A stretch of 64,000 bases of DNA from an uncultured Candidatus Saccharibacteria bacterium (GTDB lineage: Bacteria > Patescibacteriota > Minisyncoccia > Phycocordibacterales > WO2-35-19): the NCBI GenBank assembly GCA_964392285.1, contig CAYMOW010000002.1, positions 1-64,000 on the forward strand, written 5' to 3'. The notes beneath the pieces are model-generated. The model saw only the letters and a list, made by a program, of their open reading frames with translations, was not told where the DNA came from and did no database searches. Each line of letters opens with the position of its first letter. Position 1 is the stretch's first letter. Shown in pieces: positions 5,449 to 40,144 of the stretch. A program made the position numbers and the translations under genes.

Positions 5449-8139
5449 TTATTCAACACTGACTGGTGTAGTTAGGATCGAGGGTTCGATGATTGCGCCG
5501 CGGCGGCCTTTTTTGATATCGAAACAAAGCTCACCATTTTTGAGTGCAATATGCACAAAGCCACCCTTCATAATCGACTTCCCGATGATAAGCGAGGCAA
5601 TTGGATTTAGAATCTTGTTCTGGATCAAGCGCTTCAGCGGTCTGGCACCATATTGCGGGTTGTAACCTTCGCGAGCCAAATAATCGAGTGCTTCTTCGGT
5701 AATATCGATGTCTATTTCCTTAACCGAAAGTCTTTCGCGCACCAAACCGATTTGGATTTTAACGATTTCTCTGATGGCCGATCTTGGCAAAACATCAAAG
5801 ACCACAATATCGTCTAGACGATTGAGGAATTCTGGACTGAAGTGATCTTTGAGCGCTTCGAGGACCTTGTCTTTGACATTGTCATAGGAAGTATTTTCCT
5901 CACCGCTGCGTTCGCCAAAGCCCATCTTCTCCATCTTTTCGATGTATTGAGCACCGATGTTCGAAGTCATAATGATGATGGTATTTTTGAAGTTGACGGT
6001 TCGGCCCTTCGAATCGGTCAGACGACCATTGTCGAGCACTTGCAAAAGCACATTAAAGACTTCCGGATGCGCCTTCTCGATCTCGTCAAAAAGCACTATC
6101 GAGTATGGCCGATGACGCACAGACTCGGTCAAACCACCGGCATCATCGAAGCCAACATAGCCCGGAGGCGCACCAATCAGTTTGGAGACAGAGTGCTTCT
6201 CCATAAATTCAGACATATCGACTCGGATCAAAGCCTTTTCGTCGTTAAACATAAATTCAGCCAGAGCTTTGGTCAGCTCGGTCTTGCCGACTCCGGTCGG
6301 ACCAAGAAAGATAAAGCTGCCGATTGGCTTGTTCGGATCTGAAATGCCAGCACGCGAGCGCTTGATGGTATCGGAAATTTTTTGGACCGCCTCGTCTTGG
6401 CCGACAATACGCTTTTTGAGCTCGGCTTCCATTCGGCCAAGCTTTTCGGCCTCCTCTTCGAGCATGCGCGAAACCGGAATACCAGTCCATTTGGCCACAA
6501 TTTCGGCAATGTCGTTCTCGGTAATTTCTTCGCGCAAAATCTGACGTGAGCTTTGCAACTTTTTGAGCTTCTTGACTTGAGCCTCGAGCTCTTTCTGCAA
6601 CTCCGGAAGTTTGCCATAACGGATCTCGGCGGCACGAGCCAAGTCGGCCACCGCTTCGGCTGATTCGGCATTGAGACGCTCTTGCTCGAGCTCCTTCTTT
6701 AGACGTTTGATTTCGGTGACCGTCTCCTTTTCGTTCTTCCATTTGAGGTCAAGCTCGCTGGTTTCTTCGCGCATATCGGCGATTGCTTTTTCTATCTCTT
6801 GCAAACGCTTTTTGGCCTTGGCATTCTTGCCTTCAGCCTCTTTCTTTAGAGCCTCTCTTTCAATTTCGAGTTTGATGATTTTGGCATTGGTTTCGGCAAG
6901 CGCCGGAGGCATATTTTCAAGTGAAATTTTGAGATGCGAAGCCGCCTCATCGATCAGATCGACAGCCTTGTCGGGCAAAAAGCGGTCAGTAATATAACGC
7001 GAAGAAAGATTGACCGCTGATTTTATAGCATCATCAGTAATGTGCACGCCGTGGTAAAGCTCATATTTTTCTTTGAGTCCGCGCAAAATGGTTGTGGCAT
7101 CATCGATTGAAGGTTCTGACACATAAACCGGCTGGAATCTGCGAGTCAGCGCTGGGTCCTTCTCGATGTGCTTTTGGTATTCTTTGAGCGTTGTTGCACC
7201 GATAGCCCGAAGCTCACCGCGCGCCAAAGCCGGCTTGAGCATATTGGAAGCATCGAGCGAACCCTCGGCACTGCCAGCGCCGACTATGGTGTGGATCTCG
7301 TCGATAAAAAGAATTATTTTGCCTTCGGACTTTTCGATTTCTTTTATAATATTCTTCAATCTTTCCTCAAACTCACCACGATATTTGGTACCCGCCACCA
7401 AAAGCCCCAGATCTAGAGAGACTAGCTCTTTTTCACGCAACGATTCGGGCACATTGCCAGAAGCAATACGCATAGCCAAACCTTCGGCAATCGCTGTTTT
7501 GCCGACACCGGCTTCGCCGATTAGGATCGGATTGTTTTTGGTCCGACGACTAAGGATCTGAATAACCCGAGCAATCTCGTCTTCCCTACCAATGACCGGA
7601 TCGAGCTTGTTTTCTTTGGCCAAGGTTGTGAGCGAACGAGTGAATTTGGAGATAGCTTTGTTCTTTTGGTTGGGTTTGCTTTCGAAAACTCGGCCTTGCT
7701 TGATTTCTTGGATCAGAAATCTGACCTTCTCCTTCTCAATTTTAAATCTGGCCAAGATATCTTTGGCCGGACTCGGTATCTCAAGACAAGCCAAGAACAA
7801 ATGTTCGGTCGAAACAAATTCATCACCCATTGAAGAAGCGATCTTGGCTGAATCTTCTATGATCCGAGCTAGTTCTGGCAAAAGATAAATCTGATAGGAA
7901 GGCGAGATGGTGTTGCTCGAAGAGCCAGGCTCGATTGCTTCGAGCAAGGAATCAGTCAGGAGTATGGTATCAACCTCCATCCGATCAAGAATCGAAATAA
8001 CCATCGACTCTTCTTGAAGCAGGAGCGCGGTCAAAAGATGCAGAGGCCCAACGTGGTTTTGGCCACGCTCAATTACCAATTCGTGCGACTTACGAATGAC
8101 TTCTTTGGCTTTGGTTGTAAAGTTGTTGAACGGAGGCAT
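5449..8139 (-). CDS. clpB: ATP-dependent chaperone ClpB
   Basis: 896 aa with a Clp N-domain, two AAA+ modules ([19 protein letters not shown] Walker A motifs) and a long coiled-coil middle domain. Confidence 0.9.
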
Positions 8140-12726: not shown

Positions 12727-12768
12727 AATGCAAAACTCGCCTTTTGGGCGAGTTTTGCATTTTGTGAT

Positions 12769-13094
12769 CCTCATTCTCATAAGCCGAATTCTGTTTCTTT
12801 GCAATAATTTATCTAGGTCCTAGATTGCTCTAGGACTCGAGCGGCACTCCCCTCGATTGCTTTCGGGGCACGGCCTTGCACAGAAGTAAGAGTTTAGTCG
12901 TTGCACCCGTATGTTGCCATACGATTACTCCACAAGGGAGCTCCTTGCCTTTCGGCTTGGACGTCACTGTTCGCATCTCGCGCCTCACGGCGGACGGGCA
13001 TTACCCGCTACTTGGCTCTCCAATCGAAATTGGAGCTGTGTTCGGACTTTCCTCTCCGACTAAAACGTCGGAGCTATTGCTCGGAATGAGAATC
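12769..13094 (-). ncRNA. rnpB: RNase P RNA (rnpB) candidate
   Basis: The minus-strand RNA contains the universal CR-I-like GAGAGGAAAGUCCGAAC near its 5' end and a CR-V-like AACAGAAUUCGGCUUAU near its 3' end. The P4 partners are GUCCGAA and UUCGGCU. The terminal P1 pairing is UCUCAUUC...GAGAAUGAG. The whole is about 326 nt and GC-rich. Confidence 0.6.
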
Positions 13095-16649: not shown

Positions 16650-16952
16650 TTAATTATTTTTAACTTCTACTTTGATTGGAATGTTGGAAAGGCCGAGTTC
16701 GCTTCGGATAAAGGCCACAATACCCCAGACCGAAAAGGCCACAAAGAGTCCGATGATACCCGAAACCATAATCCGCCTACCCTCTTCGGCCGCCTTGTCG
16801 CTACTTGCGCCCTCCTTGATATATTTTGCCACACCCCAAAAGAAATACAACAAGCAAAGTGAAAAAGCCAGTGGTATGAGTATGCTGTTCACTATGCCGA
16901 ATGCTGAATCTATGAGGTCGCCAAGTTTCATCCCGTTAGTGAAAAATGGCAT
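16650..16952 (-). CDS. small two-TM protein, paralog 4
   Basis: Core YFFWGVAKYIKEGASSDKAAEEGRRIMVSGIIGLFVAFSVWGIVAFI; about 85% identity to paralog 3 in the core. Confidence 0.7.
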   Translation of the reverse strand: MPFFTNGMKLGDLIDSAFGIVNSILIPLAFSLCLLYFFWGVAKYIKEGASSDKAAEEGRRIMVSGIIGLFVAFSVWGIVAFIRSELGLSNIPIKVEVKNN

Positions 16953-17087
16953 TGCTTTTTTGAAAAGCCACCATTTTATTTTTTAGTTTGTAATTCATAT
17001 AAATATCGACTTAATATATTATAACTCGATTGAAAAAGCTTTTCTATGCCATTTTCTACTACGGGATTCATATTACAATTTTCAATC

Positions 17088-37436: not shown

Positions 37437-37682
37437 CTACCTAAACAAATCGCCGAAGTTGCGCAAGTCGCCCTTGATATTGCCATAGACGTTGATGGCT
37501 TCGTTGATATAGGGATCGATATAATAGTAGATACCAATAGCCGCGCCGATTATAAGCACCCAGTAAGCAATGCGGAAGACTCGCCCCCAAATCATCTGCC
37601 GACGAATACTATGAAGCATTTTGTTGTTCTCTTGGGCCAACTCGAGCGTCTTTTTGAGTAAAGCTTTTTCTTCTTCGTTCAT
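37437..37682 (-). CDS. hypothetical small membrane protein
   Basis: ORF 37437..37757 trimmed to the internal ATG (MNEEEKALLKK...) to avoid overlap with the glutaredoxin gene; one C-terminal TM (WVLIIGAAIGIYYYI). Confidence 0.4.
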   Translation of the reverse strand: MNEEEKALLKKTLELAQENNKMLHSIRRQMIWGRVFRIAYWVLIIGAAIGIYYYIDPYINEAINVYGNIKGDLRNFGDLFR

Positions 37683-37692
37683 ATTTTTATTA

Positions 37693-37929
37693 CTATTTAA
37701 GACCCAGACTATCTTCAATCCGAGCCTGATCAAAGCCGACAATAACTTCGTCGCCAATCACAATAACCGGCACACCCATCTGGCCAGATTTTTGCATCAT
37801 CTCTTGTCTTTTGGATAAATCGCTCAAAACATCAAAGTCTTCAAAAGGCACATTGTTTTCTTTAAAAAAGTCTTTGGCTAAATGACAGAAATGGCAGGTT
37901 GGGGTCGAATAGATGGTTACTTTTTGCAT
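37693..37929 (-). CDS. glutaredoxin-like protein (NrdH/Grx family)
   Basis: MQKVTIYSTPTCHFCHLAKDFF...GVPVIVIGDEVIVG: CxxC and the cis-Pro region of the thioredoxin fold; start at the internal ATG (37929). Confidence 0.75.
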   Translation of the reverse strand: MQKVTIYSTPTCHFCHLAKDFFKENNVPFEDFDVLSDLSKRQEMMQKSGQMGVPVIVIGDEVIVGFDQARIEDSLGLK

Positions 37930-38146
37930 AGTCTTTTGGTTATTTGATAATATAATCCAAATTCTCCTCACAAGCTTTGCTGTAGAACGGACAGGGCTCA
38001 AGAACAACATCCTCGGGAGGAAACAGGTAGTCAGTATAAACCATAATCACACAAGCGCAAAGGGCCGAAAAAGAAGCAAAGATCAAGACTCTAACATAGT
38101 TCATAACCAATCTATTGTAGCAAAAAAACTAGCACAAAAAAACCAC

Positions 38147-38293
38147 CGGGGGCCAATCTCTTACAGCAGGAGGTAGTAAAGAGAGATCGGCCCCGGCGGT
38201 ACACGAGTGGGGTCGCCCGTGGACTGGCGACCCCGAGGGGAGGGTGGGGTCGGAGGAGCTTGACCTCGCAGAACGGACAAGCACCCCACCCCC
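38147..38293. other. GC-rich highly structured element between grx and groEL (candidate ncRNA or complex terminator)
   Basis: GGGGGCCAATCTCTTAC...GTAAAGAGAGATCGGCCCC long hairpin, GGGGTCGCC-CGTGGACT-GGCGACCCC perfect hairpin, and GGGTGGGGT...ACCCCACCC; stands out in an AT-rich neighbourhood. Confidence 0.4.
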
Positions 38294-38393
38294 CTATCTA
38301 ATGTCTAGGGTAACAAACCCACAGAATTTGTAAAGCCCCAATTCAAAAAACCCCCTCTCTTGCATCCAAGAGAAGAGGCTTGGGGATGAGTTA

Positions 38394-40040
<1,647 letters not shown>

Positions 40041-40144
40041 TTACAATTTTCAGTTTTCAATTTTCATTAAATTTCCAATTTCTCAATGTTTGAAAATTAG
40101 AAGATTTAATCATTTATTGAAAATTTTAAATTATAAATTGAAAA

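Follow-up and report, generated by a model that had tools for sequence, protein, structure and literature searches.

What kind of element is the short GC-rich segment that lies between groEL and the glutaredoxin gene (grx) in the 64-kb stretch of DNA analysed here (contig CAYMOW010000002.1, positions 1 to 64,000; hereafter the window)? An earlier reading of the letters without database searches (the sequence-only reading) had described a multi-hairpin element directly downstream of groEL. It had offered a stable RNA, a small RNA (sRNA) processed from the 3' untranslated region (3'UTR) or an attenuator coupling groESL and grx as explanations, and it had also pointed to a 54-codon open reading frame (ORF) beside the element. 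GroEL, encoded at 38394..40028 on the minus strand, and an 81-aa membrane protein encoded downstream place the window in the Paceibacterota/Parcubacteria of the Candidate Phyla Radiation (CPR), and its nearest named relatives are metagenome-assembled genomes (MAGs) of Candidatus Zambryskibacteria. CPR bacteria have tiny genomes and few regulators. To our knowledge, which includes the literature looked at, hardly any regulatory or structural RNAs have been described from these bacteria, and nothing specific was found in the literature on non-coding RNAs of the CPR.

The answer developed here, to which we give a probability of about 65%, is that the element is an independent structured non-coding RNA gene of roughly 160 nt on the minus strand. 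It is predicted to form a unit of its own between two other transcription units, groESL upstream and an operon of the small ORF, grx and the 81-aa gene downstream. The RNA is best read as the local, lineage-specific version of an RNA gene that related Paceibacteria carry in the same position, preceded by a promoter homologous to its own. For the comparison, syntenic loci (denoted by L numbers) were taken from genomes, metagenomes and Logan assemblies, and the slot behind groEL was compared in a groEL-linked set of 26 distinct loci of relatives. The groEL gene of L168 has 99.4% nucleotide identity to that of the window, and GroEL identity to the window is 92% in L082, 91% in L086, 88% in L169, 87% in L083 and 82% in L002. 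L001 is a 923-bp fragment, and about 20 further, more distant loci were also compared.

A predicted transcription unit behind groEL

The GC content of the window peaks at the element (38143-38296), where 100-nt windows reach 0.67-0.68 in a first scan and 0.72 (38141-38320) in a scan of all 64 kb, compared with a whole-window mean of 0.444 and a standard deviation of 0.082. The minus strand of the element folds with a minimum free energy of -92.0 kcal/mol, against -66.2 +/- 4.4 kcal/mol for dinucleotide shuffles (z -5.84; 0 of 200 as good). The plus-strand value is -83.4 kcal/mol (z -5.26), so that the minus strand is better by 8.6 kcal/mol, and a run of seven U after the last hairpin exists on the minus strand only. 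The GC-rich multi-hairpin segment of the sequence-only reading is borne out by these results, as it holds the highest 100-nt GC content of the window and three strong hairpins (H1 to H3; coordinates of all features are given in Table 1), among them the perfect stem in H2 that had been singled out. The last of the three has the form of an intrinsic (Rho-independent) terminator, with the stem base ACCGCCGGGGCC/GGCCCCCGGUGGU followed by U7, and the equivalent hairpins in L082 and L001 are directly followed by U6-U7. A simple terminator scan passes over H3 on account of its exceptional stem length of about 24 bp.

On the minus strand, the groEL stop is followed in turn by a terminator-like hairpin, the putative promoter, the GC-rich body, H3 with U7, TGCTACAAT, 9 nt and the ATG of the small ORF. 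The element lies 95 nt past the groEL stop on the same strand. Its position directly downstream of groEL had been described correctly, although the terminator-like hairpin and the putative promoter intervene. An analogous conserved groEL terminator (AAAAAATGGCTCA..GCCATTTTTT) is found in most relatives and is absent from L168 and L082.

The putative promoter of the RNA (TTTACA-16-TACCCT with a TGn and a weak -10) may be of the sigma-70 type, in which -35 and -10 hexamers stand 16-18 nt apart, and it is backed by homology to L168 and to the TTGACA..TGCTATAAT of the relatives. It is homologous, spacer included, to TTGACAgattcTGTgGnTtTGCTATAAT of the relatives, with the common spacer ATTCTGTGGGTTTG / AATTCTGTGGGTTTG, and its counterpart in L168 is TTTACAAATTCTGTGGGTTTGCTATCAT (TTTACA..TGCTATCAT). 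The pattern occurs a single time in the 64-kb window. The 5' end of the RNA was placed by promoter geometry and by the conserved YAGAU at the starts of the relatives' RNAs, and the 3' end by the H3 hairpin and U7. The predicted RNA contains no AUG, and a coding function for the element was rejected on this ground together with the lack of conservation of its GTG-start ORFs of 42-51 aa and the replacement of H2 in L082.

The stretch between groEL and the RNA (38300-38393) was also compared with positions 1678-1745 of L168. Despite the near identity of the two groEL genes, L168 lacks the groEL terminator hairpin, and about 7 of 27 positions differ in the -10 and 5' leader of the RNA; the stretch is a local hotspot of change or recombination.

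Constraint on the predicted RNA of the window

Searches of all 169 collected loci with BLASTN-short and nhmmer found RNAs of the window type in L168, L082 and, in part, L001 only; BLAST among the RNAs of the slot likewise links only the window, L168 and L082, and viral contigs scanned with hairpin 1 and with the promoter gave no match. At four-fold sites of groEL, the window is identical to L168 at 259 of 261 positions, to L082 at 114 of 238 (48%) and to L086 at 37%. Compared with this neutral background, H1 is identical between the window and L082 at 15/15 positions of its 5' strand and 27/27 of its 3' strand, the UCCUCCG loop included (42/42 in total), which argues for strong purifying selection on the sequence of H1.

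The other two hairpins have changed more. A 7-bp version of H2 is kept in L001, and an unrelated hairpin takes its place in L082. H3 measures 59 nt in the window; its counterparts in L082 and L001 are shorter, at 40 nt, and their stems differ from it in sequence. From the stem base, the pairs C-G, G.U, C-G and G-C of the window correspond to U-A, G-C, U.G and A-U in L082, and pairing is thus kept through two double and two single compensatory changes; these were read by hand, as the MAFFT alignment of the four window-type RNAs was too poor for pair counting. The RNA of L082 has the same three-hairpin plan (z -6.4). In L086, the next relative, the fold is unrelated and a terminal helix closes it.

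Related RNA units in other Paceibacteria

In 19 of the 26 groEL-linked loci, groEL is followed by its terminator, an A-rich stretch, a TTGACA-16-TGCTATAAT promoter, a GC-rich RNA with a terminator of its own and the next TGnTATAAT promoter. These RNAs are 150-430 nt long, start with YAGAU and end in their own terminator, and the gene that follows the unit is lemA, a ydjM-like gene or the small ORF, each behind a TGnTATAAT promoter. The RNA unit is missing in seven loci (L169, L089, L099, L120 and L125 among them), which keep both flanking units; in L169, the small ORF comes straight after groEL, behind TGGTATAAT. Since the flanks are kept in loci without the RNA, the RNA unit is a separable module and neither the groEL terminator nor the leader of the next operon. 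Additionally, two to three RNA units stand in tandem 3' of groEL in L102 (~2250-2870), L114 (~2395-2940) and L105 (~1800-2250), each with its own TTGACA/TATAAT-type promoter and terminator.

The RNAs of the relatives form a mosaic GC-rich set (L092, L094, L095, L101, L102, L104, L112, L117, L118, L122, L163, L002 and L083). A core hairpin, GCCGGCCGyCGGsGG...CCsCCGACGCGCUGGyC, is found in nine of the relatives' loci; a module CAAGGAGUUUUCCGCC..GGAAGAUAAUyCUUCU is common to L002 and L101, another to L117, L118 and L083, and L101, L102 and L104 have a GUGUCACCAAACCAAAC domain that resembles a pseudoknot. Within the core hairpin, 91.9% of cells are paired and 7 of 15 pairs are changed on both sides, with 0 of 500 shuffles as good, and the pairing collapses in slid registers. 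A covariance model of this hairpin (R1) scores its nine training members at 44-70 bits and additionally matches L126, L100 and L098, with no match at E <= 10 in the window, L168, L082, L086, L083 or L002. The set matches no Rfam family, and its near-consensus promoter suggests that these RNAs are probably highly expressed.

The RNA of the window shares with the relatives' RNAs the slot after groESL, the strand, the promoter with its spacer, the YAGAU start, a GC-rich body in an AT-rich genome, an intrinsic terminator of its own and a minimal plan of few hairpins. It differs in that the relatives' RNAs are mosaic, reach 430 nt and have no detectable homology to its body in sequence or structure. 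It thus goes with the set by locus, strand and homologous promoter and not by the core hairpin, and since R1 misses it, its orthology is carried by position and promoter, the body being not detectably homologous. Given four-fold identities of 48% to L082 and 37% to L086, this is unsurprising, as only constrained sequence would be expected to survive. The possibility that H3 is a truncated core hairpin was dropped because R1 misses the window RNA, despite common CCGCCGGGG/CCCCCG strings. Among the explanations offered by the sequence-only reading, a stable RNA is the one favoured by this independent-gene anatomy, conserved by position and promoter in the relatives. A promoter-conserved RNA locus beside the chaperonin operon across many Paceibacteria would be an entry point to the RNA biology of the CPR.

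The slot also varies in other respects. In L082 (2476-2901) and L086 (2379-2930), a gene for a ydjM-like membrane hydrolase separates the RNA from the small ORF; this gene is absent from the window, as is the lemA gene that precedes grx in most relatives. A long-range hairpin region, AAAATAGCTTCTTTC...CTCAAGAACTATyTT, is common to L002 (5660-5900) and L089 (3424-3545) directly after groEL; in L002, it precedes the RNA promoter.

Exposed CCUCC motifs and a possible mode of action

Translation signals in the window are unusual in that a Shine-Dalgarno (SD)-like motif is found in 4 of 46 long ORFs, and a -10-like TAnn[AT]T box ends 4-10 nt before the ATG at 24 of 48 starts, compared with 9.1% of all ATG triplets. 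With -10-like boxes this close to the starts and SD motifs this rare, most mRNAs of the genome appear to be leaderless. Genes with a strong GGGAGG site are few; one of them encodes an SPFH/Band-7 protein, and the gene next to it is another.

The anti-SD sequence has CCUCC as its core. The window RNA contains three copies of it, against 0.87 expected from dinucleotide shuffles (P ~0.05), and no GGAGG. In the predicted fold, two of these copies are unpaired: the 3' internal loop of H1 holds the first and the apical loop of H3 the second. Both stay unpaired in L082 although the H3 stem differs there. The persistence of these exposed motifs suggests pairing to GGAGG-type ribosome-binding sites. 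In such a mechanism, the RNA would act in trans, with hairpins 1-3 as a stable scaffold that displays UCCUCC in the H1 internal loop and ACCUCCU in the H3 apical loop as anti-SD-like motifs; these would pair with the GGAGG-type ribosome-binding sites of the few SD-led mRNAs in a mostly leaderless genome. Provided that the element is an independent RNA gene, we hold this mechanism to be possible, with low confidence, and put it forward tentatively. If true, it would show how an organism dominated by leaderless mRNAs singles out its SD-dependent genes. The fuller proposal is that the slot holds a structured-RNA class of Zambryskibacteria-like Paceibacteria, with members of about 120 to 430 nt that sometimes stand in two or three tandem copies, of which the window RNA would be a remodelled minimal derivative whose anti-SD mimics selectively silence rare SD-led mRNAs; taken as a whole, this is unlikely.

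Several observations weigh against the independent RNA gene and the role suggested for it. The -10 of the window promoter, TACCCT, is weak, and it is because this box agrees with the consensus at only 3/6 positions that a consensus promoter scan does not call the promoter. Homologues of the window-type RNA are few (full in the window, L168 and L082, partial in L001), the invariance of H1 leaves no covariation from that hairpin, H2 is not conserved in L082 and the R1 model misses the window RNA at E <= 10. The enrichment in CCUCC is marginal, the loop of L001 reads CAUCC instead of CCUCC, and the wider RNA set has no such enrichment (8 CCUCC against 6 GGAGG). Target prediction within the 64 kb brought up nothing convincing: its leading duplexes consist of generic GGAGG strings, and the best one falls inside the pyrG coding sequence (GGVxSxxGKG motif). 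Pairing to the mRNAs of the small ORF, groES or hsp20 is not in excess either.

Alternative explanations

The alternative that survives best keeps the independent RNA and lets it bind or scaffold protein, as a 6S-like or CsrB-like RNA or a ribonucleoprotein (RNP) component, with the GC-rich helices and the invariant H1 as recognition surface. H1 is indeed conserved in sequence beyond structure, as the 42/42 identity indicates, and the relatives' RNAs of 350-430 nt, with their common modules and pseudoknot-like domain, look more like RNP components than like seed-pairing RNAs. The near-consensus promoter and A-rich stretch of the relatives resemble, from general knowledge, the promoters of abundant stable RNAs, and the failure to find a target also fits. 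However, no known protein-binding RNA family matches, three tandem hairpins are not the 6S rod with a central bubble, and in the loci compared, the presence of the RNA is not tracked by any gene that could encode a partner. We consider a protein scaffold somewhat unlikely, but a serious rival in view of the constraint on H1 and the large, modular RNAs of the relatives.

The element could instead be the 3' end of the groESL transcript, that is, a compound stable terminator or protector, with any small RNA as a processing by-product. L168 and L082 have no terminator between the groEL stop and the element, so that groESL transcripts must end at H3 there, and for these two loci the processed 3'UTR-derived sRNA of the sequence-only reading stays a secondary possibility; the window itself has a groEL terminator. 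The weak -10 of the window and the location of the element on the same strand, 95 nt past the stop, point the same way. Against this stands the promoter, which is kept with its spacer over about 19 loci, most of them with a separate groEL terminator. A mere terminator would have no need of the strong sequence constraint on H1, and the tandem units of L102, L114 and L105 carry promoters and terminators of their own. A groESL 3' end is quite unlikely to be the explanation.

Less likely again is a decaying, non-functional remnant of a larger ancestral RNA. The weakened -10 and the missing core hairpin of the window RNA would fit decay, as would the complete loss of the RNA in the close relative L169 and the differences in the groEL-terminator/promoter stretch between strains with 99.4% identical groEL genes. 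Decay does not explain why H1 is unchanged in L082 where neutral sites are 48% identical, nor the compensatory changes of H3 and the strong folds of both lineages (z -5.8 and -6.4), and we regard a remnant as very unlikely.

The element could also act in cis as a leader that regulates read-through into the small-ORF/grx operon, be it an attenuator, a riboswitch or a thermosensor. This is suggested by a hairpin with U7 that precedes the ATG of the small ORF by 31 nt on the same strand, and by the stress-related neighbourhood. A leader of this kind is scarcely believable given the extended -10 between terminator and ATG in every orthologue (L169 without the RNA included), the 190 nt behind which read-through would bury a leaderless-type, SD-free start, the lack of a constant regulated gene (ydjM-like in L082 and L086, lemA in most relatives), the absence of any evident alternative anti-terminator pairing and the lack of a matching riboswitch family. 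The attenuator coupling groESL and grx of the sequence-only reading is not supported, as the downstream operon keeps its own extended -10 with or without the RNA. The element does not fit the class of riboswitch or attenuator leaders either, since a second promoter follows the terminator and the downstream gene varies (small ORF, ydjM-like or lemA).

Comparison with known RNAs

Searches with Rfam 15 found no matching family on the element in E-value scans of the 3 kb around it, none there at gathering thresholds when the whole window was scanned and none on the RNAs of twelve relatives (L002, L082, L083 and L086 among them); the only Rfam matches in these scans were tRNAs and RNase P RNA. The models of 6S RNA, signal recognition particle RNA, transfer-messenger RNA (tmRNA) and RNase P do not match the element, ARAGORN found no tmRNA in the window, and RsaE/RoxS and other Rfam sRNA families gave no covariance-model match at E <= 10 in the 3 kb around the element. 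The RNase P RNA of the window is itself reduced or divergent: it is of class A, lies at 12764..13092 on the minus strand, scores only 111.7 bits where the gathering threshold is 100, and measures 329 nt against the 367 positions of the model.

The only Rfam family to align with the element at all is CcsR1 (RF02791); with 15.7 bits (E = 1.9) and a gathering threshold of 65.3, the alignment falls short of membership. The CcsR1-4 RNAs of Rhodobacter resemble the window RNA in having hairpins with CCUCC-type anti-SD motifs and a stress-gene neighbourhood, which in the window comprises groESL, Hsp20, PrsW and grx. CcsR RNAs are alphaproteobacterial, are co-transcribed after a DUF1127 gene and pair with SD sites as C-rich-loop sRNAs do. 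The arrangement after a DUF1127 gene is not present at the window locus, and the CcsR loop motif CCUCCUCCC is not complete in the window RNA, which has only CCUCC/UCCUCC.

The sRNAs with their own promoter in a 3'UTR region (type I), such as DapZ and MicL, are encoded directly behind a highly expressed gene, in its orientation, and share or supply the terminator, as does the window RNA; in L168 and L082, the RNA terminator is the sole terminator of groESL, as in this type. The window and most relatives differ from it by a separate groEL terminator and by a promoter that is intergenic and not inside the coding sequence. With 6S RNA, the window RNA shares a promoter of the abundant-RNA type, poor sequence conservation and high structure, and it is unlike 6S in its three separate hairpins in place of the rod and in its patchy distribution among close relatives.

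In Firmicutes, sRNAs with C-rich motifs (RsaE/RoxS and other Rsa RNAs) pair with G-rich SD regions (Geissmann et al. 2009, PMC2790875). Likenesses of these RNAs to the window RNA are a length of about 100-200 nt, an Hfq-independent style, independent transcription, unpaired C-rich motifs on hairpins and an intrinsic terminator; as the motif is CCUCC in the window and UCCC/CCCC in Firmicutes, which belong to a different phylum, this is a functional analogy only, drawn partly from general knowledge. A type I toxin-antitoxin pair of RNA and small ORF was rejected, as the two show no excess complementarity (z 0.1) and occur separately; co-transcription of the ORF with grx and its purifying selection are further evidence against it.

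Table 1. Features of the groEL-grx region of the window, the predicted RNA gene first
Feature	Position	Strand	Details
Predicted non-coding RNA, ~160 nt	38136..38299	-	5' AGAUAGGGGGG... 3' ...GGUGGUUUUUUU
Putative small-RNA promoter	38307..38334	-	-35 TTTACA 38334..38329, 16-nt spacer, TGt 38315..38313, -10 TACCCT 38312..38307
Hairpin 1 (H1)	38239..38294	-	7-nt 3' internal loop UCCUCCG; CCUCC at 38256..38252
Hairpin 2 (H2)	38209..38234	-	perfect 9-bp stem GGGGUCGCC/GGCGACCCC, 8-nt loop
Hairpin 3 (H3)	38142..38200	-	followed by U7 at 38142..38136; apical loop ACCUCCU, CCUCC at 38173..38169
groEL terminator-like hairpin and T-run	38342..38381 (hairpin 38381..38348)	-	15 pairs
Extended -10 promoter TGCTACAAT of the small-ORF/grx operon	38114..38122	-	9 nt before the ATG
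Gene of the 54-aa small membrane protein	37940..38104, stop included	-	N-terminal transmembrane helix, acidic tail, CPFY-x3/4-C
Glutaredoxin-like protein, YruB family	37693..37929	-	CHFC; PF00462 3.6e-20; TIGR02196 91.4 bits (cut-off 88.55)
81-aa conserved membrane protein, last gene of the operon	37437..37682	-	129 homologues, some from Candidatus Zambryskibacteria and Parcubacteria MAGs

The small membrane protein and the glutaredoxin operon

The 54-codon ORF exists with the translation that the sequence-only reading had quoted; its coordinates had been one base off and are corrected in Table 1. The ORF is also conserved, with orthologues in five relatives only (L168, L001, L082, L086 and L169, which make up the closest clade) and a ratio of non-synonymous to synonymous rates (dN/dS) of 0.02-0.15. 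Over the first 29 codons, L168, whose small protein is identical to that of the window and was used in these comparisons, differs from L001 by 9.0 synonymous and 1.0 non-synonymous changes (dN/dS 0.02) and from L082 by 7.5 and 5.5 (dN/dS 0.15). L083 (GroEL 87%) yielded no copy of the ORF, and in L002 the spot falls into a gap of the assembly. Judged from these sequences, the ORF is a genuine gene for a clade-restricted small membrane protein. It was left uncalled on the Logan contig L168, which shows how clade-specific genes can escape gene calling.

In the small protein, a basic N-terminus is followed by a single hydrophobic helix (residues ~5-24) and then by an acidic tail, a layout that by the positive-inside rule would put the N-terminus inside and the C-terminus outside. 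Cys16 in the helix and the cysteine pair of CPFY-x3/4-C are kept in all five distinct sequences. The protein has no match among the families of Pfam and NCBIfam. A word-indexed search of 5.8e9 proteins returned only P0001, and an exhaustive phmmer search of 1.84e9 proteins returned P0001 and two spurious tandem-repeat proteins.

An extended -10 also precedes the ORF in the relatives, as TGATATACT at 9 nt in L001 and TGGTATAAT at 6 nt in L082, and at 7 nt in both L086 and L169. With the -10 box 6-9 nt before the ATG in every orthologue, the mRNA of the small ORF appears to be leaderless or nearly so. The small ORF is the first gene of the operon, followed by grx and the 81-aa gene with gaps of 10 nt. 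Membership of grx in the YruB family is indicated by both its score and its CxxC motif, and the 81-aa gene is syntenic with grx in all loci examined. A redox-linked role of the small protein, as the sequence-only reading had proposed, is plausible in view of the three conserved cysteines and the predicted co-transcription with a YruB-type glutaredoxin gene. The small ORF adds a cysteine-bearing, clade-specific membrane micro-protein to a conserved grx operon. L169 has the ORF and no RNA, and most relatives have the RNA and no ORF; as they occur independently, RNA and ORF are two findings and not one system.

Further observations on the locus

The spacer between groES and groEL (40029-40144, minus strand, 116 nt) is very AT-rich and contains repeated GAAAATTG-like words, and groEL has no preceding SD. 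No controlling inverted repeat of chaperone expression (CIRCE), the heat-shock operator, was found within the whole 64-kb window.

Mobile elements were seen near several of the compared loci. In L169, which has no RNA, a gene for an IS200/IS605-type Y1 transposase (6939-7643) follows the gene of an 84-aa membrane protein. An inverted-repeat element of about 75-130 nt that resembles a miniature inverted-repeat transposable element, with the termini CCCGTAGTAGATTTTGACA...TGTCAAAATTCACTACGGG, is present in the lemA TGCTATAAT promoter of L094, L095 and L118, where it is inserted between the RNA terminator and lemA. A diverged copy lies in the window itself at 16937-17065, with 3 mismatches and 16-nt inverted arms 93 nt apart.

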